Source: Leptogorgia sarmentosa (taxonomy: Eukaryota). Taken from it: DNA of 64,000 nucleotides. This document shows positions 30,263 to 64,000 of this stretch, one piece after another. Numbering within the stretch: position 1 is the first letter of the stretch; each line of letters opens with the position of its first letter. A program made the position numbers and the translations under genes. The notes below the pieces were generated by a model. It saw only the letters and a list, made by a program, of their open reading frames with translations, did not search any database and had not been told where the DNA came from. The DNA is taken from positions 18,848,001-18,912,000 of the forward strand of contig OZ210885.1 in NCBI GenBank assembly GCA_964658305.1. The letters are read 5' to 3'.

Positions 30263-30562
30263 TCACTGTCCATTTGAATTTTCTAAATCTTTGAAAATAC
30301 AACTCCATTCATTGTGTGCCAAACAGTCTACTGTATGCTTATTTACATAGAGATATAGCACGTTAGAACAGGTTTGTGCACAAGGAATATTCTTCTGTTC
30401 ATCATGAACAAAGGCAATAGATGGTGTTGGATAGAAACCAACTGATGGTACATTTGCAGCACCAGTTACAAACATGAGCATATGTGATGGGGTGATCAAT
30501 GGGACAAACTTTTTCTCTTCATCTGTCAATGTGAGGCCTTCATCCTCTAATTCTTGTAGCAA
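30263..30562 (-). pseudogene. HECT C-lobe fragment
   Basis: MLMFVTGAANVPSVGFYPTPSIAF...IPCAQTCSNVLYL. Confidence 0.7.
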
Positions 30563-31303: not shown

Positions 31304-34300
31304 CAACCTCGTACCCAGGGTCTTATGATCTCCGCTCCCGCTGCTCTCCCGCTACGACAAAGACCCTGGCTGGAGCTGGTCACGTGCCTCCCAGATTCTG
31401 GGAGGTAAAATAAATATATAGTGTGGGAGGGGTGGTTGGGGCGCAGTATTTTGTCAATTTGGAAAAGTATATCGTTTTGGTATTCGATTTTCGTGCAAAA
31501 CCTTTCGCTGACGGCGCGTTAAGGAAAAGGATTACGTTTAACACCGACTTCTATCATTAGAGACTATTGAATTACACAGGAAGCTAGAATTAAAGCATTT
31601 TACAACATGTGCGTGTGTCAAATGACTCACAGAAGCCGCTTTAGCCGGTTTACTTTACTTCTCAGTTCGAATGCCTCATGGCCACAAAAGACACTCCAAA
31701 AAAGTTATACTCGAAGACCGCTTCTACAGAAGTTTCTAGTTCGTCTTGTCGACTTTGTAAAGCTGTTGTTGACAGGAATCATTCCAGAGATCAGTTTAAA
31801 GCCAAGAATAGCACGGTTCTAAAGAACGCTGAAGCGTTTTATGGACACTCTCTACCGCAAGACAAGAGTCTACCATACCTGATATGCCGGCCATGTGAAA
31901 GAAGACTTGATAATGCGATCAAGTTCAAAAATATTATTACAGAAACGCAGACTCGTTCAAAACGCTGCCTGGATATATCGCCGTCAGTTTCCCAGCCATC
32001 TCCTTTAAGAGTGCGAACGAGTGTCAGTTCGTCTGGTTCCAGTCGCAGAAGAAGCTTAGATTTCGCTGAGCCCACCGCATTGCAGCCACAGGTGGGAGAG
32101 TATTTAAATTAAGAATATTACTATTAGATCTAATACTGTAGGTTCGGCCATGATTTACATGTTTTGCGTTAGAACGCGCGACTCGAGCCATACTATAATA
32201 ATAAAGAGAACATCCCATGCATATTTATGATTACTTCACAAAGGTCGTCGAAGCATAATATAAACTGTTTTAGTGTTTAGTGTTACCACAATAACAAATA
32301 TAAACTGGAAATGACTATAAAAGTTTAAAAGCTAGGCATTATTATTCCAAGTAAAAATCAATTCAGCGTTTTAGCGTTTCACTTTTAGATGAGAGAATAT
32401 CTGTATTATTACCTACAAATCAGAAACATGTGTAAATTCAATATGCAATTCAATATGCAGTATCAGTATATGCAATTTGTAGCTGAACATTATATGTATT
32501 ACACACAGAGACACACTTCCACAAACCCCCATCTCTGATCCTACCCTGTAAACACTACAGTGTATGTACAGCACACACTGTGTTGTGGGTTGCATTCTGC
32601 ATTATTAATATTATACACACAGCATGTCTTTGCAATAGGTTATTTGTATTTACATGTGATCCAACTACACATTCTTGTTTTATTATTTATGAGATATTTA
32701 CCATTTTAATTTAATATGTTTCTTGCCTGCCAACCTTTCTTCAACAACCTCTTTTGAGTGATGTTTTGGATAAGGCAAATCAAGAGCTGGTTGAAGTCGC
32801 CAGAAGAACTGAACCATCAGTGTTACGAGAAAGAGATTTCAAAGGACTATCAGACCAAACATGGATAACTGAAATCATGAATGAACTGTCTGCTCAATGC
32901 CCTGTGGTGACAGCTATTTTATCCCAATTACTGGAATTAAACCATTTCCCTGAGAAGAAAATTCCAGCTGCATGCTTAATATATGGCATCTTGATGTTCT
33001 TGAGATGCCATGAGTTAAGTAGAGTGCAGAGGATAAATACAATCCTGCTGACACAAGGTCAAGCTTCTACCAATGTAAGATATTTTATATTTGCACTTTT
33101 GCTTAGAAACTTCTAACTGCTAAACTCTTAGTCATGGTGAACCATGACTGTAGCTGGCTAGTTAACAGATTGAACTTTGTTGGAATTATTTTTCTAGGAG
33201 TTTAAGTTAGTAAGGTAAAATTAAGAAGCTATCATTTAAAGTGCTTCCTAAAGACAAGTTCAGTAAAAAAATGAACTGTTGCGATAGACATAGGGACAAT
33301 CAAGACATTAACAATGCCTTCAGCCTTCTAGATATGCCATGTGGTATTAAGTTATTTATTCAATGTTATGCTAATAAATTATCATTATGTTTTTCTACAT
33401 TCTTTATAGTTAATTGATCGACTGAACAAATATGGTTTCTGTCTTGAGCCAAGCTCCAAGTATTCATTGCTGGACAACATTGGGCATCATTTCCTAGACC
33501 GTACAGTGGAGTTAGTGAAATCTGGTCACAAATTTGTATTTGTGCTTGATAACATTGATTGGGAGGAGAAGGCACATGATGTAAGATCTGATAACCAGAA
33601 CAAGAGTGTCCATGCAGTGGCCACAAGTATCGTGTTTGACAGGATTCCTAGAGCCAACCTGCCTGATACTGGTCCACAGAGAGACCTAAAAGCTACTAAT
33701 GTTCGTGAACTTGTTGAAGTCAGTGATGCTGAGTTGGAGACCATTAGAAGTCGATACAGGACATTATTGGCAAAATATCTGTTTGAACACTTCCAAGAAT
33801 TTTGTGGTTTACAAGCTCACATACCCAGCACCCCTGATTCCATGTATCCTGAGCAAACGTGTTTGAAGTCGGAAGTGATAACCATGCCAATTCTCATGAA
33901 GGATGAAAAAAAATATTCGGAATGTGTTGATGTCCTTGACCAACTTGAGACATGGACATACGACATTTATGCTGCTGCAGGAATGTGTAATGTGTCATCC
34001 ACATCTTCCAGTGCTCCTGATGGCCTTCCAGCACCTGCAATTGGCAACCATTCAAGGCCAGATCAACCAGCATCACACATCCCTCCCACTGTATCAACAG
34101 ATGACCCTTTGGCCGGTGTGAAGATACCTTGTTTTGGTGACCAGCTTACCAGGGTTCGACTGGCTGGTGCAAAAGATCTTCGAGCTGGTTGCCATACCAC
34201 TAGACAGCGACTTGACCACCTGTACCCTTTCCGCATTGTTGACTGGCATACCAAGAGAAGTTTTTTGAAGGTATAATATAAATACACACATTAAGCTTTA

Positions 34301-35906
34301 ATTCTAAATATAAGCCAATTCCCCCTAAATATCAATCCAACTGAATACACCCCCACAATATTGAATTGCCAAATGACAGGCCAAATTCAAGAAATGGTAG
34401 GCAAGAACAGCTTTGAACTGACAAATGAGTAAGGAAAGAGCAGTGGAAATTTTTTAGTTTTTGGCAGGTCAAATATATAAAATGGCAGGCTACAAATTAC
34501 TTTGCCTGCCAAATTAAAACTGAAATGTTAAAATGTTATGGCATTTCATCATTCTCTACCCCTGCCCTGTATGAATGTGTTGTTTGGTTATCTACATACA
34601 AATATTTTTACTCCAGCAGAGAAAAAGGTACTCTAAAGTACTTTCGGGAGAAGCTAAATCGTAGGAGAGTTACAGTGGATGTCAAGCATTATGAAGATTG
34701 CGAGCAGTTATTTCTAAGTGTTGGCAAGTGTTTTGTCCTGGAGGCGTTTCTGGAATTCTTTAATATGGATGATGTGACAGAGAAACCAACAAAGAATGTT
34801 CCAGATTTTTCATCAACTGCAACTGATGAGGAAAAGAAAACCAAAATTACAAATATCCTGGATAAGTTTCTCGACAAGTACATTTTTGTGCCTAAAAATG
34901 AAGAAGACCCTCCTTTTGACAATGATGGTGTATGCTCATACTCAGTGAATATGATCAAATCTTTCATCATACTTGCTGATTTTAAAGATGCTGTAGCTGC
35001 AGGAAATGGCGAACACCTGTCAATTTTGCATAAACAGTTGTTAGTTCATTTTTTTACTGCAACTGGATTTAATGAGTATGCTATTGAGATGCTCATTAAC
35101 ATCATACAAAGCCAAATCCTTTTGTCCGAAGCTGAGGCCCACAAGTGCAAATGGGCATCTACAGTTAATTGGAGTGGTGGTGAAAGAAGAAATGTTGAAA
35201 TAGACTTGTTTCAAGAGAACCGAAACAAGGATATGAAATTGATGACAAGGGCCATGGGTGCCAACAAAACTGACAAAGCAATTAGCCGAGCAAGTAAGGC
35301 TTCTGGAGGTGTCAAAGAAATTGTTGAAGCCTTTGAGAAACAAACCCACATGCGTCGCAAGTCCTCGTCACATTCCCATAAATCTTCAGCAGTTGATGAG
35401 AAGATGATTTTAGAAGACCTGAGAAGTTTGAGGCCCTTCAAACAGGTAGATGGAAGGGTATTTGAGTCTTTTAAGGATATTTCCCACAACCCTGCTTCAC
35501 TATTTGATGAAAATTAATTTGTATCCTGGATTAACAGGCACAAGAATAACATTTTAAAACATTTTCCAGCATCCAATGATTTAAATTCTGTGGAAGACTT
35601 AAGTTCAGAAGAAAGCGATGATGTATAGGCAAAAGATCATACAGTAATATATATACAGTACAGCTACTGTAATTCAAAAAAGGTTGTCCTTCATAAACAT
35701 TAAACGTAAACGATGGACTATGAGCTTGCAAGGGATGCAAGGTAACTTCTATTGGGAGCCTCAAAGCATGCTCGATATAGGGAATTTTACATGTTTAATG
35801 TTTATGAAGGACAACCTTTTTTGAATCAGCTGTATATATACTGTACTATATAAATATATATAATAATATATCATAGATCATAAATATACAATATACATGT
35901 AAATAC
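31304..35906 (+). mobile_element. Academ (AcademH-like) element, left part; cut by IS3EU copy 2
   Basis: Starts with CAACCTCGTACCCAGGG, an Academ-like terminus, followed by the transposase gene. The right end was not found. Confidence 0.6.
31678..35628 (+). pseudogene. Spliced Academ-type (DUF6589-like) transposase with N-terminal C4 zinc finger
   Basis: CRLC...ICRPCERRL; VLDNIDW; FGDQLTRVR; DWH; EIDLFQENRNK. Exons approximately 31678-32091, 32750-33075, 33410-34270 and 34615-35628; stop at 35515. Confidence 0.7.
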
Positions 35907-38047
35907 TACGGTGGCCCGTTAGGGACACGCATGTTCCGTAGAAAATTAGGTCCTCTCAGTAGAATGGCGGTTGTATTCCGTGCAAATGCAGTTATTTTCT
36001 GTAGAAATGAAGGGTTTTTCCGCAGAAATTTGATGCTTTTCCGTGGTATGTATCGTATATTTCCGTAGAAATATGATACTTTTCGGTAGAAATATGATAC
36101 TTTTAAAACTGATGCGCGCGCATGTGATTTTGTTGTCATCCCCAGGCCTCCATATTAAAATAAACTCGACGCGCAAGCCACGTGCGTTCTTTTAAAATTT
36201 CAGGTTTCACTAGCGTTTGCTTCTAGTATTCGATCTTTTTTAAGTTTTGAACCGTGTAACATGTTTTGCCAAGGCTGTGGAACGAAGCTCTTGGACAACG
36301 CCAAGTACTGCCATAATTGCGGTGTGTGTGCATCGTCAAATCTTGGTATGTTACCGTATGTTCTCAATATGTAAATGTTATATGCAAATATAACCGTGGG
36401 GAGAGTATTTCTTAATTAGCAATCTTGTGTTTTGGAAGTTTTGGTATATGGTACTTGATTTTCATTGCTTAAATTTTTCAATCTTTAGATTCATCCAAAC
36501 CGTCAACCAACAATTCTGTTGTTAAACCTAGCTCATTTGAGGCTTTCCGCAAAAAAAAAGAGCAAGACCGCTCATCAAAATTCAAGCTAAAACCAGGTGG
36601 GAAGCGGGCAAAGGTATCCCGAGAGGTTAAAATCCAGGTAGGCCTGGTGAAAGATAAAAATGGTGATGGTGTTTTGGTAAAGGCAAAGTCAAGAACAATA
36701 ACTCTTGCAATTGATGAAGATAGTGATGTTGATACACTATTAGCAAAAGCTATAGAGAAACACACACGCCATCACCAGCAATTTGAAAGGGATATTAAGT
36801 ATGTCCTTTTATATCATGACATGTCCATGGTAAAGAACTTACCTCGAAGCAACACACCATTTGTTTTGTCGAAGTATCAGAAAGATTTGCTGATGCCCTA
36901 TTCAAAAATATATTTCTGGTTATGTTCACAAGCTGATTTTGAAAGCTCATTATCAGAGGAAAGCTCTGATACAGAACTTGAAATGAGACAGGTTAAAAGT
37001 GCTGCAGATCCAGAACAGTGTAGCACTGCACAGTCAAGTTCAATGTCCGGTACAACCAGCAGCAATGAAGCCAAAAATAATGTCAGACAAGGTACACAAT
37101 TGTCATTCTGTGAAACCTTAGCATTGCACCCTCCAAATGTTTCAAGCAGAATATCATCCAGGTCTGATCAACAAGAATTAATTGATAATTATTTGGTTTC
37201 CCATCAATGTCCCACTTGCCTTAAGTTTTTTTCACGAGCTGAGATTGAGGTTCATGCTGATGTGTGCGCAGAAAATTGGATTGACCCTATTGGTGACTGT
37301 GGGGATTCAGTGGCAATCTGTGATAGTGGTGAAGAAACTCTCACTGCTGATGAACTGAGTGTTCTTGAATCTGAACCAGAAGTAAGACGGATATTATTAA
37401 GAAGATTAACAGTTCCCTCAAGAGGACATCAATAAACAGAATAACAATTCGGAGACAGGAAGCCTTTCAAGATTATTTGGAGGCCAGGAGAAAAAAATGG
37501 TTTACAGAAGGAGCAGTTCTCAAGATTAGTTTTGCAGGTGAACCAGCGGTTGATGGAGGTGGGCCGAGACGGGAGTTTTTTACAGGCAAGACTTTCGTTA
37601 TTAGGACCACAATAATTATAGCTTGAGCTCATTGTTGTATTAATAGATGCCTTAAATTGCATCTTCATTTCTTTAGCAATGTATGGTGTGATAAGTTGCA
37701 TATTGCCACTTGTTATTGAAAACCACTTATTGCATTTGAATTTAATCTTCTAACTTCCTCCATTTTCACTCTGGATCATTAATTAATGCATGAATAAATG
37801 TTTTGTGTACATGCTAATATGTGATAACTTTTTTCTGTAGATGTTTTGAAGCACATCCAGCACACATTGTTTGATTCCAGTGGGTATCCATTGATCAACA
37901 CACGTGCACTGGCTAACAACGAATTTAAAGTGGCAGGTGAACTAATGGCTTCATCACTTGCCCAAGAAGGACCTGCACCATGCTTGCTTGCAGAGAAAGT
38001 CTTCGATTATGTTGCTAGAGGCATACACAGTATCCAATCATACAACT
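35907..38047 (+). mobile_element. IS3EU-like element copy 2, left part only
   Basis: Begins TACGGTGGCCC (first 11 nt identical to copy 1), subterminal ttccgtagaaa repeats, then a HECT gene in the same position and orientation as in copy 1. Confidence 0.7.
36262..38047 (+). pseudogene. Zinc ribbon-UBZ-HECT E3 ligase-like gene, truncated
   Basis: MFCQGCG...YCHNCG; UBZ4-like CPTCLKFF...EVHADVC; GEPAVDGGGPRREFF (~37538-37582); GELMASSLAQEGPAP. Confidence 0.75.
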
Positions 38048-40363: not shown

Positions 40364-40412
40364 GTCTGAAGCCCACACAATCATCTTAAAACCAGTTCCA
40401 TAACGCGACAAC

Positions 40413-43400
40413 ATGGAAACTCCTATGGAAGACGACGCAGCCGACAGTCCTTCGCCTTCTGGCTTGGCTCAAGCTTCGCCAGCACTGACCATGCTACCTG
40501 GAATAAAGTCGCCTGGCAAACTCGATCTCCGTACGAACATCGTTGACAACTGGAAAACGTACAAACCGACGTGGAACAACTACGCTATCATTACCAATCT
40601 CAATGTCCAGCCCGAGGAATATCAGCTAGCTTTGTTCTTGCATTGTATCGGCCCCGATGCCCTGAAAATCTACAATGGTTTCGATTTTGCTAACGAAGGC
40701 GATAACAAGTCTATAAAGAAGACCTTTGAGATGTTCGACGTTTACACGATGGGTGAGATAAACGAAATATACGAACGCTATGTGTTTAACTCGAGAAATC
40801 AGCAGCCAGATGAATCGATAGACACATACGTAACTGTGCTTCGAAATTTAGCGAAGACCTGCAACTTTTGCGACTGCCTGAAGGACACATTACTACGAGA
40901 CAGAATTGTTCTAGGAATACAGAGCCAACCAACACGAAAGCGATTATTGCAAGACCGGAAGCTGAGCCTTAAGAAATGTATTGATTTGTGCCGCAGTATG
41001 GAAGCCGCCTCATCACAGCTGAAGTATATCACACAAGAGAAAACCGCCGCCGAGAGTATTCGATCAGTTAGACAACAACCTAAGGCACTGTCGAAGAACC
41101 GAACCCAAAGCCGTCGGCCAACCATCCGCCCTACAGAGGGCCCTCCCGTTGCTTGTCACTACTCTGGAAATGAACACCCCCCGCCAAAGGAGAACTGCGC
41201 AGCCTGGGGAAAGTCCTGTCTTTCCTGTGGAGGACGAAATCATTTTGCGCGAGTATGTCGTAAAACCAAGAGGGCAGCCATCCGTGCCATACAAGAAAAT
41301 GTGACTCCTGATGAGGAAGATGAGGAAGAGGATCATGATGAGGATATCGAGTATATCACATCTGTCACATTAGTACCTGACCAGGTTCATGCCGTCACAG
41401 CTCACAATAATGCATTTGCCAATGAAATATATGCTGAGCTCATAATTGCAAACCAGAGGATCCAATTTCAAATTGACTGTGGTGCAACAATCAACATACT
41501 GCCACAGAGGTATGTCAAAGATCAGAAGCTAAAGCCAACAACCAAGAAGCTCCGTATGTGGAACCACTCTGAGGTCACACCACTTGGGACAACCAGAGCT
41601 GTCACCAAGAACCCGCAGAACAACAGAAGATACTCTATTGAATTTATTGTTGTACGAGAGAGCCTGGTACCCATTATTGGTGCACGCGCAGCTCAACACA
41701 TGAACATTATCACTGTTCACAATGAAAACTTCACCCCCGCTGTACCAAACAAGGCCCATGAGGAACCAACGCCGAGTATGAATGCCCTACACACCACAGA
41801 GCAGGTTATCTCACAGTATCCAGATGTTTTCCAGCGCCCTTTGGGAACACTGGCAGGTGAAGTTCACCTAGAAGTTGACCCAGATGTCTGCCCAGTCATC
41901 ACGCCAACACGACGCATCCCAGCAGCACTCAGATCTCAATTCCAGCATGAGTTAGATCGACTACAGAAGCTTGGTGTAATCACACCAGTCGATGAACCCA
42001 CACCTTGGGTGAACAGTGTTGCCATTGCAACACGGAAGTCTGGAGCCATGAGAATATGTATCGACCCTCGTCCATTGAATACAGCACTGAAGAGAGAGAG
42101 GCACCAAATGGTTATTCTGGATGAAATCTTGCCCGAGCTTTCCAAGGCCAAGGTATTCACCACGGTTGACCTTCGAGCCGGTTACTGGCACTGCCCCTTG
42201 GACACCGCATCCAGCCTACTGACCACGTTCTCTACACCCTACGGACGTTTTAGATGGCTCAGATTACCATTTGGTCTTTGCGTGTCATCCGAGATCTTTC
42301 AGAAGTGGGTGAACCAAGCGTTGGATGGCCTTGAAGGAACACTCAACATATCCGATGATATTTTGATCTATGGCGTTGGTGAAACCAAGGAAGAAGCAGA
42401 CAAGGATCACGACGCCAAACTAGTGCGTTTACTAGAACGTTGTCAAAGCAAAGGAATTGTGCTAAACCCAGAGAAGTTAAAGCTACGACTAGAGGAGGTG
42501 GCATTTATGGGTCATGTTCTAACCAGCACTGGGGTAAAGATTGACCCAGACAAAGTCAAAGCCGTCACCGAGATGCCACCACCCACAACTGTGGAAGAAG
42601 TCCAACGATTGAATGGTTTCGTGAACTATTTGGCTAAATTCCTCCCACGGCTCACTGCGATTATGGAGCCCCTCCGACAACTGACCAGAAAGGGTGCGCC
42701 ATGGGAATGGTCCCAGAGACAGCAACAAGCATTTGAGAACGTGAAGAAGCTCGCCACTGAAGCTCCGATCCTATGTTACTATGATCCTGGCAAAGAACTG
42801 CAGGTCCAATGTGACGCAAGCCAAAAGGGTGTGGGAGCTGCGCTCATTCAGGAAGGGAAACCTTTAGCTTATGCCAGCCGTGCCTTAACAGAGACCGAGC
42901 AAAGATATGCTCAGATCGAGAAAGAGATGCTCGCCATTGTTTTCTCCCTGGAGAACTTCCACCACTACACGTTCGGCCGACCGGTAAAGGTGTTCAGTGA
43001 CCACAAGCCTCTTGAGATGATAATCAAGAAACCGTTATCAGCCATACCTCGACGCCTACAAGGCATGAGAATGCGCCTACAGGCATATGACATTGAAGTG
43101 ATATATCAGCCAGGCCCAACGATGCACATCTCTGATTTGCTGTCCCGATCTTACCTGCCTGGAGCACCCGAGCCCAACCTTGGAGAATTTGAGCACATCA
43201 ATATGGCGCAGTTCCTACCTATATCCGACGAGCGTCTCTCTGACATCAAAGAAGCAACCGCGGCCAACGAGACGCTACAGCTACTAAAAGAAACTGTCTT
43301 GAAAGGCTGGCCTGACGACAAACAACACGTGCCTGAACAAGTCCGCCCTTACTTCAGCACCCGCGATGAGCTATCCGTACAAGACGGACTGGTATTCAGG

Positions 43401-44597
43401 GGGCAACGCGTCGTAGTTCCAGTAAAGCTTCGTCGAGACATGAAGACCCGACTACACTCATCGCACATGGGAGCAGAATCGTGTTTAAGAAGGGCAAGAG
43501 AATGTCTGTTCTGGCCAGGGATGTCAGCGGAGATACGACAAGTTGTGGCGCAATGCGAGACGTGTGCCAGGTTTGGCGTCAGCCAGCAGAAAGAAACCCT
43601 CATGCCCCACCCAGTTCCCTCCAGGCCATGGCAAAAGATCGCCGTGGACCTCTTCAAATGCGACCAGAAGGATTACATGGTCACTGTCGACTATTTCAGT
43701 AACTACTGGGAAGTAGATGCCCTGCCAAGCAATACAACAGCTGCTGCTGTTATCAAGAAGCTCAAGAATCACTTCTCCCGCTATGGCAGCCCAGAGGTTC
43801 TTATGTCTGACAACGGACTGCAGTTTACCTCCACAGAGTTCCTTGAGTTCTCCAAAGCATGGGACTTTGAACACCGCACATCAAGTCCTGAGCACCACCA
43901 GTCGAACGGCATGGCAGAGTCTGCGGTGAAATCTGCAAAGCGACTACTCCGAAAGACGAAAGCAGCCGGCACAGACTTCCAGCTAGCTTTACTGGACTTC
44001 AGAAACACCCCCTCTCAAGGAATGGGACTGAGCCCCGTACAGCGCTTTATGAACCGACGATCAAGAACACTGCTCCCCACAACCACCACGCTGTTGCAAC
44101 CATGTTCCGTGACACTAGAGACACAGCAAAGCAAACTCCGTGAGAAACAGAAGAATCAAACCCGCTACTACAACCGACAAGCCAAGGACCTCGATGCCCT
44201 GAAGAAAGGAGATGTGGTGCGAATGAAACCTACTCGTGCTGGCCAGCATCAATGGAAGAAGGCCACTGTCACATCCAGCTATGGAAACAGATCTTACCTC
44301 GTTGAAACTGAGGACGGTGGGAAATACAGACGGAACAGAGTACACCTTAGGAAATCCGAAGAAACGGCCTATACCGATGACGACATAGATCCTACCTCAC
44401 CACCAAATGATGAACAAGCTGAATCCGAGCCACCAACCAGTGAAGTACCAGAGCAGACCCTTGACGTTTCTCAATCCTCCAGTTTACCGTCTGATGCAAC
44501 CATACAGAGCCCTATCCTGAGAAGACCACAACGTCAGAGAAACCCACCCGTTTATCTTCAAGAATATGACTGCGGACAAATCAACTCGCGACCATAG
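40413..44597 (+). CDS. Gag-Pol polyprotein (Gag, PR, RT, RNase H, IN)
   Basis: 1394-aa uninterrupted ORF: CLSCGGRNHFARVC, IDCGA, LPFGL, ISDDIL, CDAS, DHKPL, SDNG, SNGMAE. Confidence 0.95.
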   Translation: METPMEDDAADSPSPSGLAQASPALTMLPGIKSPGKLDLRTNIVDNWKTYKPTWNNYAIITNLNVQPEEYQLALFLHCIGPDALKIYNGFDFANEGDNKSIKKTFEMFDVYTMGEINEIYERYVFNSRNQQPDESIDTYVTVLRNLAKTCNFCDCLKDTLLRDRIVLGIQSQPTRKRLLQDRKLSLKKCIDLCRSMEAASSQLKYITQEKTAAESIRSVRQQPKALSKNRTQSRRPTIRPTEGPPVACHYSGNEHPPPKENCAAWGKSCLSCGGRNHFARVCRKTKRAAIRAIQENVTPDEEDEEEDHDEDIEYITSVTLVPDQVHAVTAHNNAFANEIYAELIIANQRIQFQIDCGATINILPQRYVKDQKLKPTTKKLRMWNHSEVTPLGTTRAVTKNPQNNRRYSIEFIVVRESLVPIIGARAAQHMNIITVHNENFTPAVPNKAHEEPTPSMNALHTTEQVISQYPDVFQRPLGTLAGEVHLEVDPDVCPVITPTRRIPAALRSQFQHELDRLQKLGVITPVDEPTPWVNSVAIATRKSGAMRICIDPRPLNTALKRERHQMVILDEILPELSKAKVFTTVDLRAGYWHCPLDTASSLLTTFSTPYGRFRWLRLPFGLCVSSEIFQKWVNQALDGLEGTLNISDDILIYGVGETKEEADKDHDAKLVRLLERCQSKGIVLNPEKLKLRLEEVAFMGHVLTSTGVKIDPDKVKAVTEMPPPTTVEEVQRLNGFVNYLAKFLPRLTAIMEPLRQLTRKGAPWEWSQRQQQAFENVKKLATEAPILCYYDPGKELQVQCDASQKGVGAALIQEGKPLAYASRALTETEQRYAQIEKEMLAIVFSLENFHHYTFGRPVKVFSDHKPLEMIIKKPLSAIPRRLQGMRMRLQAYDIEVIYQPGPTMHISDLLSRSYLPGAPEPNLGEFEHINMAQFLPISDERLSDIKEATAANETLQLLKETVLKGWPDDKQHVPEQVRPYFSTRDELSVQDGLVFRGQRVVVPVKLRRDMKTRLHSSHMGAESCLRRARECLFWPGMSAEIRQVVAQCETCARFGVSQQKETLMPHPVPSRPWQKIAVDLFKCDQKDYMVTVDYFSNYWEVDALPSNTTAAAVIKKLKNHFSRYGSPEVLMSDNGLQFTSTEFLEFSKAWDFEHRTSSPEHHQSNGMAESAVKSAKRLLRKTKAAGTDFQLALLDFRNTPSQGMGLSPVQRFMNRRSRTLLPTTTTLLQPCSVTLETQQSKLREKQKNQTRYYNRQAKDLDALKKGDVVRMKPTRAGQHQWKKATVTSSYGNRSYLVETEDGGKYRRNRVHLRKSEETAYTDDDIDPTSPPNDEQAESEPPTSEVPEQTLDVSQSSSLPSDATIQSPILRRPQRQRNPPVYLQEYDCGQINSRP

Positions 44598-50265: not shown

Positions 50266-51547
50266 ATGGCGTACCGATTACCTGGCATCCCTTTTTACGA
50301 TCTTCCACGAGTGAACAGACGAGCGGACAGACTTTTCAGACGTGAAATTGACAACATGTTACAATACTACGATGATAATGAGCTACGCAAACGATATCGT
50401 TTCGGCAGGCAAACCATCAACTATATAGTCAATCTTGTCCGAGACGAAATAAGTCCCGAAACAAATCGTAGTCACACAGTTTCAGCCACTAATCAAGTTT
50501 TAATAACACTTCGGTTCCTCGCATCAGGCAGCTTTCAACAAGTGACAGGAGATAGTCTCGCAAGCTTGGATAAGTCAACGGTTTCTCGAATAGTACGTCG
50601 TGTTACTGTTGCCTTATCTCGTAAGATGAACCAATTCATCAAATTCCCTCACAAGAAGAACGTGACACTGTGAAGCAAGGCTTTTACGAGATCGCCAATT
50701 TTCCCTGCGTGATCGGCTGCGTTGATGGCACACATATTAAGATCATTGCGCCCTCACAAAACGAGCCGGACTTTGTCAACCGAAAGAGGGTACACAGCAT
50801 AAATGTCCAGGGAATCTGTGACCACAAAGGTACAGAAAACATCTTTATTATCAATTCACTAAAAATATTGCTTCGTTGTTTGTTTTTGTAATTTTATGGT
50901 AGCAATGTAGCATGATACTCAGGCATAATTGTGGATGTAAATGATTACAATATTACTGTTATTACTCGAAGTGGAATAATTATGCAGAATTGAGTAAACA
51001 TCCAATTATGTTCAATATGCTCTCACACTGTGACGCAAATGCTCAGAAATTTTTCCCCTTTTTTATTACAGGAAAATTTACCAATGTTGTGGCCAAATGG
51101 CCAGGTTCAACCCACGACAGTCACATATTCCGCACATCATCTGTTGCACAAGACCTAGCAGGAACCCATCTAGAAAATGGTGTTCTCTTAGGTGACAGTG
51201 GGTATGCCTGCATGCCATTCTTAATGACCCCTTACCTGGAACCAGAAACCCAATCACAGCGGCGTTTCAACCGTGCCCACAGAGTAACAAGGTCTCTTAT
51301 CGAAAGAACCTTTGGCGTGTTAAAACGACGTTTCTATGTCCTTCATGGTCAAGTTCGAATGTGCCCTGAAAGGGTATGCGTCATTGTTGTTGCATGCTGT
51401 GTTCTGCACAATATTGCTATTGACTATAATGAGCCACTGCATGAAGAAGAGGAAGAGCCCTTAGTGGAGGAGAATATAAATATTCCATATAATGGTGTCA
51501 ATACAGGGGCAGCAGTCAGAGATCATATTGCAGCAACATACTTCTGA
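50266..51547 (+). pseudogene. Harbinger (HARBI1-like) DDE transposase; frameshift near 50650, intron 50830-51071
   Basis: GCVDGTH, WPGSTHDS, LGDSGY, IERTFGVLKRRF, CCVLHN. Confidence 0.9.
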
Positions 51548-51976
51548 TTTATTCAAATACTTCAATATAATTACATGTTCTTTAAATTTGAATGTTGAAA
51601 AATTGTCATAGATTGTAAACACATTAAAATTGGAAAATCATTAAATTATTAAAATATACATTTTAAGGCTGCATTATATAATATACAGTGTGTCAATAGG
51701 CAACATTTTGTAACAGCAAGTGGCAAACAGGCAGTGAGAAAAGGTTTATTTTTTATATTTAGTTTGAGTCCAAGTAATATAAGATCACAACAATATCTTT
51801 AGTCAAGTTAGTAACCTCAAATTTCACCATACATTTGCTGTCTACTCTAATGTTACTTATTGACCCATTTATGTTTTGTCATATTACTCACATCAAAAGA
51901 TTTCAAAATTTACCAAGCTTATTAGTATGTAACAACAAAAACATTTTCATGGTAATATAAAAAAAAAAGATTATTC

Positions 51977-53077
51977 CTAATCAACATTAGCTTTTGCTTT
52001 TATTTCAGCAACTTGTAGCTTCAACTTTGCTTGCAATAATTGCATGTTTTGAATTTCAACAGTAATTTTTTGTCTTTCCAACATAAGGACATTCAGTTGT
52101 GCCTCCTGTATGTCCTGTGTTGTTACCTTTCTTTTTTTCTTCTTGGGCTCCTCACTGCCCTCTTTTACTGAAATTGGCACTTTTGGTGCTACTTCAACCA
52201 TGGATGGTATTTCATCTGTCACAGATGATTCCTCAAAAGTGAATGGTGGTGAATGAGGTATGATAGCATCGTTAAATGATGGTGGTGCATTACCAATATC
52301 CGGGTTCACCAGATACAAAATGTCCCCAATTGTGTTCTCTTCAAGGGTATTTTCATTCAGGTCATCAAGATTTATGGTTGTTCCTACAACAAATACCAGG
52401 ACATTCATAAACAATGTTTCTTTGTTCAGGACTCATGACAAGAAAAGGAAAGGAAAATTATTTATGTTGTTACAACTACTAAGGCTATAACAGTGAAAAT
52501 AATTTATGTTGTTACAACCTACAACATCATGGACTAACTATAGAAAACTATCTTTAAATTCAAGATACAGAAATTAGTAACGAAATCTGTTCTCAACATA
52601 TAAACAGCAAGCGATAGACGCCCGCCATATTTATATTTTCCTTATCTCAGAGTCATAATTAATTAAATACACACACAGTCACATGAACTTACCAGAATCA
52701 ATCCCCCCTTTTATCCCGGAAAAACCAGGTTCATCACCAAATACCTCGATAATTCTCTGGCTGGTTGGCTTGAGAGTGTAATCTGGTTTTCCTCCTCCTG
52801 TTTTTTTCATTGCCTTGTTTTCTTTTACCATATCTTTTCGAGCTTCGCCTCTCATTGCTCGCCACTTTTCTCTTACATCGTTTGGTGTCCTTTTCGCAAC
52901 ACCAATTGCATTCACCCGGTTTGATATCATTTGCCATACTTCATTTTTCTTTTTGTTGGTCAAAGTTAACGAGAATTTTTCGCGGATGGTTTCAATATTT
53001 TGTTCCGCAAGGTCAAGAATTAACGCGCACTCAGCGGCAGAAAAGTTTGGCTTTCGCACTCTTTTTGTCGACTCCAT
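51977..53077 (-). CDS. Harbinger Myb/SANT-like accessory protein (2 exons)
   Basis: RKPNFSAAE...W...RTPNDVREKW...KTGGG; second exon within 51977..52414 has a coiled-coil tail. Confidence 0.85.
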
Positions 53078-53727
53078 TTTTCTTTTAAATTTCCCGCCCT
53101 TCCGCCACATAGCAACGCGTAGCAACCACCGTGAAAAACCGGTTTTATCTTGCTTTGACTGCTTTATCCTGCGGATAGTTAAACGCGTTGCTAAACAGGC
53201 TTCGTGCAACACGATTTTATCCGCTAGTTAACTATCCGCTGGATAGGAAATTTATATGTTGGATAGTGCTTACACGCCGTTTAAGTTAAACGCCTTTGAT
53301 ACAACCGGCCCCAGAAGAACTATTCTGCCATTGTAGGATGCCGTATACAGAAGGTGAATTCATGATTGAATGTTCAAGATGTTTGGGATGGTTCCACCGA
53401 TCATGTGACAATGTTCCTAAAACTGTTCGTGCAAATACCTCTTTTTATTGCATGAACTGTAAATAAGTTTGGCAAAATGTAATTTTGTAAATACTATATC
53501 TTTGTAAATATAAGTAAATTCATGTAACATTAAATTATTTAAAATGTAATTTTGTAAATACTATATTTTTGTAAATATAAGTAAATTCATGTAACAGTAA
53601 ATTATTTTACTTGTCATGAAGAAAGGTTATAACAGGTATATAGTGCAATTTTCAGCTAAGCTTGGAAACAAGCAGACAATTTGATTGATCATTGTCATTT
53701 TGATCATTGTCATTGAAATGCAATAGT

Positions 53728-54480
53728 TTCAGACCAGTCTCAATACTACGTCTCACCCCAAATTGGAGAGTGTTCAGACCAGTCTCGCTACTCGCCAGTC
53801 TGAGTTATCTCTTTCAAGAAATTATGACAGGAGATAACTCAGACTGGAGAGTATTGAGACTGGTCTGAATACTCCCCCAGTTTGGGGTATCTCCTGTCAT
53901 AATTTTTTAAGAGAGATAACTTAGGTTAGGGAGTATTGAGACTGGTCTGAATACTCCCCCAGTCTGGGGTATCTCCTGTCATTATTTTTTAAGAGAGATA
54001 ACTTGGGCTAGGGAGTATCGAGACTGGTCTGAATACTCCCCCAGTCTGGGGTATCTCCTGTCATAATTTTTTAAAAAATATAACTTGGGCTGGGGAGTAT
54101 CAAGACTGGTCTGAATACTCCTGGGCAGTCTGGGGTATCTCCTGTCATAATTTTTTGAAAGGGATAACTTTAAAAAAAATATGGCAGAGAACTAGGGACT
54201 GTTCAGACCAGTCTCGCTACTCACAAGTCTGAGTTATCTCGTTCAAAAAAATTATGACAGGAGATAACTCAGACTGGGGAGTATCGAGACTGGTCTGAAT
54301 ACTCCCCCAGTCTGGGGTATCTCCTGTCATAATTTTTTAAGAGAGATAACTTAGGCTAGGGAGTATTGAGACTGGTCTGAATACTCCCCATCTGGGGCAT
54401 CTCCTGTCATAATATTACAGAGAACTAGGGAGTGGTTCAGACCAGTCTCGAGACTCCCCAGTCTGAGTTATCTCTTAAAA
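53728..54480. repeat. Subterminal array of ~75-80 bp units (direct and inverted) at the Ginger right end
   Basis: Repeated gagactggtctgaatactcccccagtctggggtatctcctgtcat. The ggataactcagactgg motif recurs at ~54638 and ~60589. Confidence 0.8.
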
Positions 54481-55163
54481 AATACACAAAAATGATTATA
54501 TTTATAAAGAAATAGTAGGTAAATTACGATATTTAACGGACTTACAAATTTTTTACAAAAATGTGCCTTGATGAGAATACTTTTAAAATCTTTTTGTATA
54601 AAATAATCAAAGATATAAAAAAGCAGGATATAAACGGGGATAACTCAGACTGGGGGAGCGTTCAGGCCAGTTATATGGAATGCCAGAACTGTCTTATGTG
54701 GCCATTTTGCATTACATGTTGTTAATTTGTTGTTATATGGTATGCATTTCACTTTATATGCGGTCCATTCTTCGTTATATGTGGTGCTTTATTCATTATA
54801 TGCGGTCCATCCGTCATTGTATGCGGTGCTTTATTCGTTATATGTGGTGCTTTATTCGTTATATGCGGCGCTTTGTTCGTTATATGCGGTGCTTTGTTCG
54901 TTATATGCGGTGCTTTGTTCGTTATGCGGTTACTTCGTTATGTGGTAACTTTGTTATGCGGTAACTTCGTTATGTGGTAACTTCGTTATGTAGTAACTTC
55001 GTTATGCGGTAACTTCGTTATGTAGTAACTTCGTTATGCGGTAACTTCGTTATGTGGTAACTTCGTTATGCGGTTATAATATTATAAATAACATGACGTA
55101 CTTCAACATATCACACAGCGGGCTCAGAAAAGCTGTTGAAAGAAAAAGGCGTCTATTTCTGAC

Positions 55164-56525
55164 ATGAGGAAAGTTTTGGAAAACCTTGGATTTTCCTCAC
55201 TCACTGAACGTTTTATAGACCAACGTATTACTCCAGATATCGTTTCCAAACTTTCATTGTACGATTTCTATCAATTGGGTATGCATAACCACAGTGACAT
55301 CATGTCCTTGAGAATTGAGTGCACGAAGTATGGGACAGCCAAACCAACAAGGCATAATAATGGAAGAACACAAGCCGTGTTCGAAATACCGAAGGAGTTA
55401 TTGGAGAGTTTTCTTGAAGAAGATTTTCTTATCAGTGAAATTGCTACAATGCTATCCGTGTCTGAAAGCACTATATACCGTCGAATGAGGAGTTATGGGC
55501 TTAGCAAACATAGCTTTTCTGATATTTCTGATGAGGAGTTGGATGTTAATGTGAGTGCAATTGCCATGGAGTTTCCATTTTGCGGTGAAACTATTTTTAA
55601 ACAGTTGCTTAAAGGAAAAGGGATAAAGGTTCCAAGAAATCGACTTCGCGACTCCATACATCGAGTGGACAGCCAAGGTGTAGCGAGCAGAAAGAAAGGA
55701 AGGCTTCATCGCCGAATATACAATGTTAAAGGGCCTAACCATTTATGGCACGTTGATACCAATCATAAACTTGTAAGGTGGAATTTTATTATCGTTGGAG
55801 GAATAGATGGGTTCAGTCGATTGCCAGTTATGTTGGTTTGTACAAACAACAACAAAGCTGATACCCTGCTTTCGTGTTTTTTGGGTGCTGTGACTGAGTA
55901 TGGTTTACCAAGTAGGGTGAGGACTGACAAAGGCTTAGAGAACGTTCGTATTGCAGACTACATGATTGAGAAAAGATGAAGTGGTCGTGGAAGCATCATA
56001 AGTGGGCAGAGTACACACAATCAGAGGATTGAGAGATTATGGCGGGATGTGTTTCAAGGTGTTCTCTGCTATTATTATAATTTGTTTTATTTTCTTGAAG
56101 ATCAATCTCTGCTTGACCCACTAAATGATCAACATATAGCTGCTCTGCACAATACTTACATGCAGGAAATTAATGATAAACTGAACATGTGGCAACAAGC
56201 TTGGGCTAAGCACAGGATGCGAACAACCAGGACCAGCCCAATGAGATTATGGATTGCTGGACAAGCACAGAATCCAATTGGAGTGGTGGATCTGCTATTG
56301 GATGATTTATGGGAATATGGTGTGGAAGGCCATGTTGATAATGATGAAAATAATACAGAAGATGTCAGGCCAATTTTTTCTCCTCCACTTCTAATACTAA
56401 GCGAGAATTGCATGAGCGAACTCAGTTCCTTAGAAATAAATTCAAACAATTTTAGAGTAGAGCAATATGCTTCAGCACTACAAATCATTGAAAGGCACAC
56501 CCAAGTCTCTGATCACAATGTTTAA
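55164..56525 (+). pseudogene. SAM-HTH-integrase core (DDE) transposase; single in-frame TGA at 55977
   Basis: SEIATMLSVSESTIYRRM; GPNHLWHVDTNHKL...IDGFSR; RVRTDKGLEN; HNQRIERLWRDV. Confidence 0.9.
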
Positions 56526-56955
56526 AATGTGTAAAATCTTTAAAACAACCACCATTGGATGTAATAACAGAAAAATAATAGATGTAAATGGTAAATTAGG
56601 GATAGATGATTAGAGAAGTGATGGAGTGGTGGTGACTTGCAGAAGAAATATTTTTTCAAAACCAACATCTCCCTATTTAATGATTTTTTCACACTATGCC
56701 TTAAAGATGTTATCTTGATTTTCCTGGGGATCATTTTTTTGTTTTTGGCCTACCCCCATCACTTTTCTAATGGTCTGTCCTTAATGCAATTACGTTTATA
56801 TCGATCTAAAACGTAGACCAAAGTATTAACTTTAACTCAAATATTAACTTTAACTGGGTTATATGATATTATTATGTTCTTATTGTTCTAATCGCAATGT
56901 AGCAAACAGTAATAAAATTATTCCTTTCTATCACCGAAGAATGTTCTTCTAAAGT

Positions 56956-59900
56956 CTACATATTGCCAAAGTGGTTGCTACAAAATGCCTCATCATAAAG
57001 GCCAAATAAGACATCATCAGCTGGCAATTGCTTTGATGTATGGGATGCATATGGTAACATCATACAATTAATGCAGGTGTTGGCTGTGGGCAGGAATGAC
57101 TCCATTACTTCTACAAAGTGAATTGATGGAGCTATTTTAAATCCTAGCAAGGGCTCTTCATCACATGATGCTGCAAACTGGAGAATCCAACCTAACGTTA
57201 TGTCACCTCTTCTTCCAGCTATAGTAAAAAAAGTACACCATTATGTCCTGGAGAACCTGGTATTGGTTGTCCAAGTATAGATGCATGCCCTGGAATTCAA
57301 GTAGCCAATCAACTTGGTTGGCAAATTATATTAACAATAATGACAACTTGTTGAGATTGGAAATCAATGTATTACATTATTACACTTGGATAAAATATCT
57401 TTGTGGCTTTATTACTGTGTGGTGACCATAATCTAGCAAAGCTTACCTGCAACTTCTCGCATATATTTGCACAGTAGTGCATAAACAGAAGCTTCATATC
57501 TTCTCTTATTTGATCCATCTGGACTAAATTGTGGCACCAGTAATGTATGAATCTTTCGTAACGTAAGAATGGATGATGGATTTGGCTTAAAAATCTCCCG
57601 TAGTGATGGAATTTGCTGACATAGCTAAAAATAAGCATTGTGAAATTTATAAGAGAGACAACACCATAGATGACAGTTTTCCTTGGCTAATTGGATGATG
57701 ATGATGATGGTGATGGTGATGGTGATGATGATGATGACAGAACATTTACAGTATTCTACCTGGAATATGCCAATTTTTTCCAGTCCTTTAATCAGATTTT
57801 GTAAGGCATTACATTTAACATCTGACTCAAACATTTCTGTTAATACATCATCTGATAAAAACTGAGGGAGTTTGCCATTTTGTAGTATACTGAGGCCTAT
57901 AAGGGTAAGAATGATAATTAAACATAGCAGTAGAGCATATGACAATGTACCTCGAAATTGTCAGGAGGTAGCAGCACTGTGCCCTCATAATAAATTACAC
58001 ACAACTTGGCATGAATCCAAATTTCAATATGAATAATTCATCTAACCATATGCTAAGGGTACTTGAAGTATTAATTCATTCCGTTATCAAAATTTCTTAT
58101 ATAACTTTTTCCGGCCTAGCAATGCACTGTGGCTATGAACTTACCCATTATCAGTCCAACACAGATATATTCATCTGCTAAAAGGGCACGCAAGCCTTTA
58201 TCGAAATATTTGTTCTTAATCTCTAACAGAATTAGACGGAAGAATTCTTTTCGTGGACCTCCGTAATCCTGCGCTACCTATAAAATAATAATAAATTATA
58301 TAAAGAATGAAATTTTAAAGTCAGTTATTCAAGCAAATAGAACAGGGCCTTTGAAAGATTTTTTACATGCATCACTTCACACAATTTTTACATAGAATAT
58401 AAAGGTGGCTCATGGTTACTACCCAGGGCAATTTTGGAATCTGGCAATGAATCCTGCAAATGGATAAAAACCAAAGAGATGAACATTTTTTTGGAATTTG
58501 TCTTTCCATCTAGTGACAGACTGAAGTCTATAGTACTGTATTTCAAACCAAAACATGAAGTTCAAGGGTAATATCCAGATTATAAAATGTGAAAAATTTT
58601 TCCATGTTTTACAAGAAACAGGACTTTTACTGGGGGGCTGTTGGTGGGTGGAAACAAAATAGGAGCTTTAATAAAAAATACTGGTGCAGTGACAAAAAAT
58701 ATTCAATACTGGTGGAGGTCTATTCTAAACTAGAGGGCAAACTGCAAAGGATGGTTTTGAACAGTAATATGGGCTTGTTGCTTCCTCTAGTTATTACTTA
58801 CTATATATTAAAAGGGATTTGGAATAGAATTTGCCAAAGAAAACCTGCAGAAAAAGTTCAATTATAATTAAAATATAATTACCTCCCCATAAAATTGGAC
58901 CTCTAAAGTGAGAAATAGATTTTCCAATCCAGCAATTTCTTCCATTCCAGTCTCCAAAATATTGAAACGGTCAACCAAGATGTAATTGGTTGCTCCTTCT
59001 GGACAAGAATCCTCATTTTCAATTTCCAGACTTCTTCCTTGTACAACTTTAGATTGCATCAAACGTATAACCTCTTTAGTAGTGGAAATTTGGTTTTCTT
59101 GGCAATGATATACAATACCACTCACAATACTGTTGATGTCTTCAACTACTGGCAATTGGTTGGTAATCTCAGTTGGAAACTCATTGTGGCATCCCTGGCA
59201 CATTTCCTTTACATTAACAACAGTTTCAGGTTTAACAGGCTTGGTTGAAAGGCTACGCTGTATTGGTCGAACATAGATCTTTGACTGACCTCCAAGGTTT
59301 GCTTTAAGATGTTTGACAGACCACTGACACTTGATGATTGTCAGCCGTCGGCAATTTGATTGGCATTGAAGAAGTTCAAATCCTCCGCCATCCCGGAGTT
59401 GTGGAAATCCCATGGTGATGGTCTCCTCATCTGTCGATTTCTCTGCAGACATAAGCTTTTCCGCAAATTGCTCTTCGTTGTCGCTTAGCAAAAATTTTAT
59501 TTTTTTCAGTCCTAAGCCTGCATTGTAAAGGACTTGTTTGGCACTGGCGGTGGGTAGGGTAGTTTGTTGGCGGTCTGCCAAGCAAAATACATTCGCAGTC
59601 CATGCTCTTCTGGCAGGCTCTGATGCCTTTCTCTTTCGAGATCTTTCTGTTCCTCTGGCATGGCGAGGGTTGAACAATCTCGCACGTTCGGCTGCGACTG
59701 AAGCAGCGGATGGGACACGGTAGGTAGATCCTGACGATGTCGCTTGTGATGTCGACGTCGACGCTGTGGTTTCTGGAGGATTGGAACCACTATGACTATT
59801 GCCATTGGAACCGTTCGTGTTTTTACAAACTGTGCGAAGACGAACACGATCCCCTATCGTTGTAACGCCAAGTCGGGTTAACTCTGCATCTGTCATCGTT

Positions 59901-59983
59901 AACACTAGTTCTGGCTCGACCCTTTCTTCTTTAAACCGCTCAAGCAAAGTCTGAAGGCCTGCTGCTTCGAGTACTTTATCCAT
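56956..59983 (-). CDS. SAM-domain HECT E3 ubiquitin ligase-like protein, 5 exons
   Basis: Exons approximately 59983-58883, 58277-58145, 57896-57760, 57625-57447 and 57218-56956 with GT-AG ends. Motifs VQFYGE|VAQDYGGPRKEFF, WILQFAA, FLPTANTC, HFGNM*. Confidence 0.85.
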
Positions 59984-60584
59984 GTTGCCGCATGCATATA
60001 AAGCAGCCTTCGGCAGGACGTAAAACCACTGATAAAATATTCCGCACGAAGTTTTTCTGAGCCCGCTGTGTGATATGTTGAAGTACGTCATGTTATTTAT
60101 AATATTATAACCACATAACGAAGTTACCGCATAACGAAGTAACCGCATAACGAAGTTACCGCATAACGAAGTTACTACATAACGAAGTTACCACATAACG
60201 AAGTTACCGCATAATGAAGTTACCGCATAACGAAGTTACCGCATAACGAAGTTACGCATAACGAAGTTACCGCATAACGAAGTTACCGCATAACGAAGTA
60301 ACCGCATAACGAAGTTACCACATAACGAACAAAGCACCGCATATAACGAACAAAGCACCACATATAACGAATAAAGCACCGCATATAATGACGGATGGAC
60401 CGCATATAATGAATAAAGCACCTCATATAACAAAGAATGGACCGCATATAAAGTGAAATGCATACCATATAACAACAAATTAACAACATGTAATGCAAAA
60501 TGGCCACATAAGACAGTTCTGGCATTCCATACAGTTAGCTACGTGCTCAGCGGTCCGCTGTTTTCGCGCGTGCGCAGATGATCA

Positions 60585-60629
60585 AAAGGGATAACTCAGA
60601 CTGGCGGAATGCTGAGACCGTGACACCGG
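60585..60629. mobile_element. Probable right terminus of the Ginger1 element
   Basis: ...gagaccgtgACA|CCGG. A TGT..ACA end and a CCGG target match what I recall for Ginger1, and it shares the subterminal motif. Confidence 0.6.
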
Positions 60630-62859: not shown

Positions 62860-64000
62860 TGTTGGGAACTGACCAATCATTTAAGATATATCATATAACA
62901 CTTTAGGGAGGGAAAGTTAATTAGGGAGATTATATAGTTTAGTTTTGATCAGAGAGTGTCATCGTGACAGCGAGAGAGTACGGATGTGAGACAGCTGCGA
63001 CGAGCATACATTGTGATTTGGGTATACTTATATTTTTCTATTAAAACTTATATAAATGTGATTTGTCGAGGACTACTGTTTTGGAGGCAAGCTGAAATAT
63101 AGCTGAAACGCCAGTTAACTTATCTTAAGTACGAATCAACGACAAAACGTGACATGGAGAAGCTTGGGACGAAGCTGAAACAGTTGAACCTAGGAGTCCT
63201 TTGAACGAAGAATATCTTGGACTCAGGTAAGAGAGAATCAATTAAACGGCATATCGATGCGCTACGTGAGACTGTTCGGGAATCAAACGAACTTAAACGA
63301 GCTGCCGAAGCGGCAAAAATCGAGCTAGGCGAAAGCGCCGAGAAAATTAATGATTGGAACAATGAGACTGACGCTAAGATTGAACTGGCGGACGTTGAAA
63401 TTGATCAGTTAGAGAGTTGGCTTGCGGAAAAGGAACGTTCCGAGCATCTCGTAGCGCAAGAGGAGCAGTTCAATGTTGAGTTAAAACTGCATGAAAAACG
63501 CATGAAAATGAAGGCTGAACTTGAACTAAGTAAGACCGCGACGGAAGTTCAGGAATGCGCTGGATTTAAGACGGCTAAATTACCCAAGTTAGAAATATCA
63601 AAGTTCGAGGGTTCGATTATGGATTGGCCTAGGTTCTGGGGGCAGTTCAATGAAGCAATAGGAAAAAGTTCAATCGCACCTATCAGTAAATTTACCTACT
63701 TGCGCGAGCTGCTTGGGCCCAAAGTAAGATGCTGTGTTGAAGCCCTTCCGTTTACACCAGAGGGTTATAATCGAGCCAAGGCAATCCTGAAGGATAGATA
63801 CGGTAAAGAGTCCGAGATAGTGAACAGTTACGTAAAAGAAATACTAGAATTGCCCCATATTACAACAGCAAATCCACGTAAAATCGCCGAATTTAGCGAA
63901 AAACTGTCTTATTGTGTTCAAGCGCTAGAAACCATGAAAAGGCTTGATTCTGTGCAGGGAAATGTATCAATGACCCTCGAGAAATTAGTCGCGATTAGGG
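62860..64000 (+). mobile_element. BEL/Pao LTR retrotransposon, 5' end (putative LTR ~62860-63077; gag from 63154 with a stop at 63202)
   Basis: KLPKLEISKFEGSIMDWPRFWGQF...KFTYLRELL...GYNRAKAILKDRYG (DUF1759-like). The LTR limits are unverified. Confidence 0.8.

Follow-up and report, generated by a model that had tools for sequence, protein, structure and literature searches.

A Leptogorgia sarmentosa IS3EU/GingerRoot transposon with predicted SAM domains on both its transposase and a convergent, shortened HECT-type ligase

IS3EU/GingerRoot transposons are described as having TA..TA termini, a 6-bp target-site duplication (TSD) and an integrase-like DDE transposase without HHCC, in which the first Asp lies about 200 residues from the start and an N-terminal helix-turn-helix (HTH) is present; they occur in corals and oysters (Repbase IS3EU; PMC6839031; PMC10045372), and their structure and function have been called largely unexplored (PMC11934779). 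Fungal IS3EU elements carry, inside the terminal inverted repeats (TIRs) and in opposite orientation, a second gene for a modifying enzyme, of the alpha-kinase or TET/JBP type, and the sections consulted report no domain common to both genes (PMC12730594). Here, we describe an element with these IS3EU/GingerRoot features at positions 54674-60531 of a 64,000-nucleotide stretch of Leptogorgia sarmentosa DNA (GCA_964658305.1, contig OZ210885.1, positions 18,848,001 to 18,912,000, forward strand; hereafter, the window), which differs in the predicted SAM domain at the N-terminus of its transposase, in a convergent gene coding for SAM, ubiquitin-like, zinc finger and HECT parts, rather than for a kinase or dioxygenase, and in TIRs of about 470 bp. 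Harbinger elements, with their Myb protein, and the RAG1-RAG2 transposon, in which the genes are convergent, also have two co-inherited genes, and their products act in a complex; there, however, the partner binds DNA or histone marks and the two proteins are not known to have a homologous docking domain, whereas the partners encoded here have homologous SAM domains. The SAM pair, with opposite faces conserved, and the shortened HECT are new features in a known superfamily: "HECT" and "ubiquitin" do not occur in the main text of Cerbin 2019 (PMC6839031) or of Kojima and Bao 2023 (PMC10045372), nor HECT, SAM or ubiquitin in the supplement of the latter. A full-text literature search found no description of HECT or SAM in IS3EU, in line with an initial annotation of the window, which knew of none for the SAM pairing; Kojima 2019 and Repbase Reports could mention the HECT gene.

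The element was initially annotated as a unit bounded by TIRs and a TSD and containing only two convergent genes, and this description stands. Its ends are TA..TA (TATGG...CCATA) and CAGTTA flanks it on both sides; TA..TA ends and a 6-bp TSD define IS3EU/GingerRoot (PMC10045372). The transposase has an integrase-like DDE core (D198, D255 and E290; Pfam rva_4 matches of 120 and 110 bits), whose first Asp falls within 100-300 residues of the start and is preceded by no HHCC; a search for the integrase zinc-binding family gave no match to it at E up to 1. The core motifs resemble those of IS3EU-1_CVi (PMC10045372, supplement). Because of its ends, its TSD and these features of the DDE core, the element is an IS3EU/GingerRoot transposon. 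Its features, with splice sites inferred from GT-AG and homology, are as follows:

54668..54673, no strand: left TSD, CAGTTA (from the sequence)
54674..55134, plus strand: left TIR, 461 bp, starting TATGG, with 21-bp and 16-bp tandem subrepeats
55164..56525, plus strand: IS3EU/GingerRoot transposase, SAM-HTH-DDE (rva_4), without introns and interrupted by a nonsense codon
55164..55322, plus strand: predicted transposase SAM domain, with a conserved mid-loop and without the end-helix Gly (Pfam and profile searches)
55386..55505, plus strand: transposase HTH region (Pfam HTH_50, E 0.0034, below cut-off)
55977..55979, plus strand: premature TGA at codon 272, within the DDE triad, after D255 and before E290
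56956..57218, minus strand: ligase exon 5, HECT C-lobe, catalytic-type Cys565 at 57075-57073, stop at 56958-56956
57447..57624, minus strand: ligase exon 4
57760..57896, minus strand: ligase exon 3
58145..58277, minus strand: ligase exon 2, holding DYGGPRKEFF
58883..59983, minus strand: ligase exon 1, with SAM, basic-patch linker, ubiquitin-like domain, half of a C2HC zinc finger and the start of the HECT N-lobe
59173..59175, minus strand: in-frame deletion junction, second half of the zinc finger and an acidic linker gone (by comparison with relatives P0122 and P0121)
59258..59608, minus strand: ubiquitin-like (beta-grasp) domain, residues 126-242 (fold matches; no Pfam family)
59825..59983, minus strand: predicted ligase SAM domain, canonical end-helix TIGDR (Pfam SAM_1, fold model)
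60050..60531, minus strand: right TIR, 482 bp, inner end 66 nt before the ligase ATG
60532..60537, no strand: right TSD, CAGTTA (from the sequence)

The TIRs are 89% identical over 484 columns and 97% identical across the outer 213 nt; the inner 60 bp or so of the left TIR are unique, and it ends 29 nt before the transposase ATG. These inner non-repetitive 60 bp (55075-55134 and 60050-60109) are near-identical in the two TIRs and hold, just 5' of each ATG, an AT-rich, TATA-like stretch and a TGACGT; they are a candidate shared promoter for transposase and ligase.

The first 53 residues of transposase and ligase align without gaps and with 19 identities, the count first reported (BLASTP E 4e-12), and their local score of 86 was reached by none of 20000 shuffles, the shuffle maximum being 45. 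The ligase N-terminus scores 28.9 bits with Pfam SAM_1 (cut-off 23); its fold model (predicted local distance difference test, pLDDT, 97) matches the tankyrase-1 SAM (Z 9.2, root-mean-square deviation, rmsd, 2.0 over 59 residues), and a profile of its family (76 sequences) matched the SAMs of BICC1 and ANKS6 (E 3-4e-8). For the transposase N-terminus, Pfam SAM_2 gives 15.9 bits (E 0.015), under the cut-off of 20.5; the best match of its family profile (105 sequences) in the PDB is the tankyrase-1 SAM (E 1.8e-4), and the transposase and ligase profiles match each other at 97% (E 4.9e-11). An atlas look-up, which serves as a lead only, places the transposase N-terminus near SAM clusters at 0.76-0.77. 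As judged by Pfam, profile and fold model for the ligase and by profiles for the transposase, both N-termini are SAM domains; they had been called SAM-like, and both now have PDB profile matches, the ligase alone passing its Pfam cut-off.

SAM domains bind end-helix to mid-loop (PMC4980433; PMC5993539), and in Eph SAMs binding through the end-helix requires a Gly where helix 5 begins (PMC5993539). In sets thinned at 75%, this Gly is found in 36 of 36 ligase SAMs and in 2 of 72 transposase SAMs. The mid-loop has an entropy of 0.83 in the transposase and 1.78 in the ligase, the end-helix one of 2.10 and 1.02, respectively, whereas the other 38 columns are equal (1.88 and 1.86); the bootstrap intervals of both contrasts exclude zero. 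The contrast between faces was noticed first and measured on columns of our own choice, and was then repeated on the interface positions named for tankyrase-2 (PMC4980433), mapped through a profile alignment. Conservation of the end-helix in the ligase and of the mid-loop in the transposase would be the pattern of a one-way, head-to-tail heterodimer, and the data fit it. The fold, the helix-5 Gly on one side and the conserved mid-loop on the other are common to EphA2-SHIP2, EphA5-SAMD5 (PMC5993539) and the tankyrase polymer (PMC4980433); those, however, are host signalling proteins, whereas the SAMs of the window both come from one mobile element and their binding is predicted. ESMFold2 gave the pair a complex score of 0.51, graded weak by the tool, against 0.00 for the best of three controls; the runs agreed in 100% of contacts and partner pLDDT was at least 80, and no interface was given. 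Of 78 solved complexes, 51 attain the pass mark, as do 2 of 108 mismatches; passes at 0.60 or under comprise 5 of those 78 and, among 180 mismatches, all 4 that passed. Taken together, the conserved faces and the model suggest that the ligase end-helix probably docks on the transposase mid-loop.

The DYGGPRKEFF and LPTANTC motifs first noted in the ligase are located in exons 2 and 5, respectively. Among 15 aligned full-length relatives, the catalytic-type Cys and an aromatic residue four positions from the end are kept in 15, and DxGGPR in 14. An N-lobe DxGG..EF, a C-lobe Cys motif and an aromatic residue near the C-terminus are common to this type and to HECT E3 ubiquitin ligases (AREL1, E6AP, Rsp5 and the NEDD4 family). 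Measured from the GG motif to the Cys, the domain spans 192 residues in the window and 181-197 in 14 relatives, two further rows being without such a motif pair, whereas in solved HECTs it spans 275 (E6AP), 280 (Rsp5) and 286 (AREL1), by hand count from alignments. The window type is thus 83-94 residues shorter, probably lacks the small N-lobe subdomain to which the E2 enzyme binds, and has a SAM, ubiquitin-like and zinc finger N-terminus. The Pfam HECT match (30.4 bits, cut-off 23.9) covers the C-lobe only. A C-lobe with the catalytic Cys is therefore present (Pfam HECT; 15 of 15 aligned), whereas a full N-lobe with the E2-binding small subdomain was not found, the identity of the gap being read from the motifs. 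The initial assignment as a HECT E3 thus stands for the C-lobe and Cys565 and falls short in the N-lobe. In a SAM-less element (L077:1-5355), the ligase is a single long open reading frame (ORF) with the same short HECT type; the SAM clade is therefore not alone in having the shortened HECT. A HECT that is short by nature and yet retains its Cys would be informative on the loading of HECT enzymes.

The ligase gene has five exons with GT-AG introns on the minus strand and 603 open codons. An AlphaFold model of residues 1-268 has a mean pLDDT of 83.8; single-sequence folding of exon 1 was uninformative (mean pLDDT 33). Residues 126-242 resemble the ubiquitin-like domain of TBK1 (Z 7.9, rmsd 2.4, 80 residues), a likeness that is generic to the beta-grasp fold, with Z 6-8 to many families. 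Foldseek matches to this domain include the C-terminal domain of Ring1B (E 0.018-0.020) and Ras-binding domains, and no match to the ligase model was as good as E 0.001. In the atlas, the domain falls in unnamed eukaryotic clusters.

A transposase search returned 1843 proteins, of which 120 were listed, and 150 ligase relatives were listed; the nearest named relatives are from corals and bivalves. Among those listed, 110 of 120 transposases have the SAM, the remaining 10 being short (291-414 residues), and 146 of 150 ligase relatives have the ubiquitin-like domain, 99 of those 146 with a SAM. In metagenome loci, the SAM transposase is present in 18 of 80; a convergent HECT C-lobe is found at 5 of these 18, among them 4 of 4 where at least 1.4 kb of downstream DNA is present. 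The same convergent gene is found in relatives down to about 50% identity, and a scan of viral contigs gave no relative. In a DDE-only tree (71 rows, from the loci and from 20 selected proteins, thinned at 90%), a single branch (Shimodaira-Hasegawa-like approximate likelihood ratio test 99) parts 31 SAM from 25 SAM-less transposases. By this tree, the SAM arose once on the transposase, and there are therefore no independent contrasts for a coupling of the SAMs. Eleven transposase-ligase pairs are linked by 1 to 8 common contigs, matched between cluster members by length and by eye as a proxy for linkage; two Desmophyllum pairs have consecutive accessions. Two ligase records in this set have a partial SAM only, and P0022 was substituted for a truncated cluster mate; a Pinctada pair (P0063/P0257), on the same chromosome with distant locus tags, was dropped, and for 4 of 10 transposase clusters no partner was found among the listed ligases. 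Across these pairs and the window, both genes have a SAM in 12 of 12, and DDE and ubiquitin-like-domain distances correlate (r 0.83), by which the two genes are co-inherited. In seven SAM-less families with both TIRs in the locus (L028, L029/L059, L049, L052, L053/L074, L057/L058 and L077), no SAM was found in either gene at E under 1. A multi-copy IS3EU family of more than 13 kb, with a helical transposase N-terminus, is present at L035:7960-21095 and in L036, L038, L040 and L072; L071 is a 4.2-kb deletion derivative of it with both TIRs present.

The two SAM sequences of the window are identical at 68 of 159 nucleotides and at 11 of 53 third positions, the proteins being 36% identical. In a tree of 72 transposase and 36 ligase rows over 53 columns, the two sets split at 100/99 support; the nearest neighbour lies in the other set in 0 of 177 cases, and cognate pairs are as identical as non-cognate ones (33.4% and 32.8%). 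By these results, the SAMs are old, separate subfamilies with no ongoing homogenisation. TIR-driven copying was rejected as the cause of their present likeness: the TIRs end 5' of both ATGs, the DNA identity is as given above and the sets are separate. In SAM-less elements, no homology was found between transposase and ligase N-termini: in each of the six tested, 75-945 shuffles out of 1000 scored equally high. Since both subfamilies end in LRxxC, which is absent from the BICC1 and ANKS6 matches, since both SAMs start just inside the TIRs, and since there is a family with the SAM on the ligase only, we infer that the 5' end of the ligase gene was probably duplicated long ago within the element to give the transposase SAM; the direction of this duplication is unrooted.

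We tentatively favour a reading in which head-to-tail docking of the ligase SAM on that of the transposase lets the ligase ubiquitinate the transposase. Both genes would be transcribed inward from near-identical TIRs, and the two proteins would therefore be co-expressed; the ligase end-helix would bind the transposase mid-loop, and the transposase SAM, having no end-helix Gly, would cap the pair instead of polymerising. The N-terminal parts of HECT enzymes recruit substrates, which makes the transposase the simplest substrate if docking occurs; it might be removed after strand transfer or kept at a low level. As the HECT seems to have no E2-binding subdomain, ubiquitin would have to be loaded by another route, through the ubiquitin-like domain, the zinc finger or a host partner. 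A wider proposal, put forward with less confidence still, is that an animal transposon lineage has become a two-part machine, in which a transposase and a minimal HECT enzyme that has dispensed with the E2-binding subdomain are joined by a one-way SAM-SAM lock, derived from duplication of a 5' end within the element, and direct ubiquitin chemistry at their own transpososome. How eukaryotic transpososomes are disassembled or restrained after integration is a largely open question, and an element-borne ubiquitin enzyme with a defined, mutable docking surface makes such control testable with two small domains and few substitutions.

Several observations weigh against this proposal. Between its DxGG motif and its Cys, the HECT domain lacks 83-94 residues, and the missing stretch is, by the motifs, probably the small N-lobe subdomain, where the E2 site has been placed, although another sentence of the same paper puts E2 binding on the large subdomain (PMC3077247); because of this shortening, ordinary E3 activity of the predicted ligase is uncertain. 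Solved SAM-SAM complexes may explain the ESMFold2 score, and none of the controls was a SAM. Charges on the two faces of the ligase SAM are complementary, with an acidic mid-loop (-2.4) and a basic end-helix (+1.75), so that it could bind itself; the transposase segment is nearly neutral (-0.4). SAMs on both genes in 12 of 12 linked pairs are partly a matter of construction, both searches having had SAM-bearing queries. In the L035 family (5 loci), a SAM-less transposase goes with a ligase-type SAM 5' of the HECT gene, the SAM being intron-split with inferred splicing and the right TIR lying beyond the DNA covered; a ligase SAM can therefore exist without a SAM transposase partner. The co-evolution of the SAM pair for which the initial annotation had proposed to look was not found: given DDE and ubiquitin-like distances, the partial r is -0.02 (n 12). 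Of the earlier ideas, co-occurrence of the SAMs thus holds for the linked pairs and the SAM clade, but not for the L035 family, and carries the limit of a single origin; docking is in keeping with the conserved faces and the weakly positive complex score, but gains no support from the co-evolution result.

The evidence for docking would serve equally a reading, unlikely in our judgement, in which the transposase is a carrier that delivers the ligase to target DNA or to the ends of the element, and ubiquitin is attached there to host proteins of chromatin or silencing. The Ring1B-like match of the ubiquitin-like domain, which could be a second substrate-binding part, would suit such a role, though the beta-grasp likeness is generic; fungal IS3EU families, for their part, have TET/JBP genes for which a role against silencing has been proposed (PMC12730594). 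It is rather unlikely that the SAMs act apart, the ligase SAM associating with itself or with host SAM proteins and the transposase mid-loop binding a host SAM protein. The ligase-only SAM of the L035 family, the missing SAM-specific co-evolution, the complementary charges on the ligase SAM and the profile matches to host SAMs such as those of tankyrase, BICC1 and ANKS6 all point that way, but a homopolymer would conserve the ligase mid-loop, which is variable, and the two lineages conserve exactly opposite faces. A further reading, in our view distinctly unlikely, takes the shortened HECT to be incapable of E3 activity on its own and to act in the transposase complex as a ubiquitin acceptor, a decoy or a scaffold subunit. 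The gap between DxGG and Cys, which by the motif reading coincides with the small subdomain that holds the E2 site (PMC3077247), and a Pfam match confined to the C-lobe speak for it, yet Cys, DxGGPR and the near-terminal aromatic residue are kept as if thioester chemistry were still selected, and PMC3077247 in one sentence assigns E2 binding to the large subdomain. A captured passenger whose SAM likeness has no function is very improbable: the window copy is decayed and GingerRoot elements carry gene fragments (PMC6839031), but the convergent gene persists in distant relatives with distances matching those of the transposase, SAM surfaces are strongly conserved, and third-position identity is low while the proteins stay 36% identical.

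The damage to the window copy, a nonsense codon in the DDE core and an internal deletion in the ligase, was absent from the initial annotation. Relatives P0001-P0003, 96-99% identical to the window transposase, have Gly at codon 272, and P0001 and P0002 are whole. The start ATG of the relatives falls at 55146, six codons upstream of 55164, and reads AAG in the window; contigs of runs X1, X4 and X6 have T at 55147. The ligase is 94-102 residues short of P0122 and P0121, half of the C2HC zinc finger included, and one contig of run X4 has 264 additional letters at the deletion junction. The intact transposase of an autonomous element is thus absent, and the window copy, as its reading frame stands, is unable to make a whole transposase. 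Because of the TGA, the AAG and the ligase deletion, the element is a decayed, non-functional copy of a family that has whole members. Many genes annotated as "HECT" or "SAM domain" in coral and bivalve genomes are probably parts of transposons.

The array to the left of the element consists of 82-bp palindromic units (53728-54484), and a related 46-bp unit lies on both flanks (54623-54668 and 60574-60619); the transposon therefore inserted into an older repeat. Further left is a Harbinger-like element (50945-53110), with a DDE_Tnp_4 ORF on the plus strand and a Myb/SANT ORF on the minus strand. Positions 1-50000 are largely mobile DNA, and other ORFs and elements in the window are:

1804-2766 and 10706-11725: tyrosine-recombinase ORFs
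12313-14577 and 40404-44594: reverse transcriptase ORFs
19101-20225: paired-box/DDE_3 element
63205-63999: DUF1759 ORF

A second HECT-like gene (25413-26563, plus strand; ending in ...AHTC...) faces an IS3EU-type transposase fragment (27884-28165, minus strand; 36% to P0001, E 8e-12), and by these matches the pair is probably the remnant of another ligase-carrying element, with a different ligase type. HECT pieces also lie around two DUF6589 ORFs (30350-30496, minus strand; 33410-35514 and 36473-37581, plus strand), a C-lobe at 30.4 kb and the start of an N-lobe at 37.4-37.6 kb, and may possibly belong to another transposon type carrying a HECT gene.

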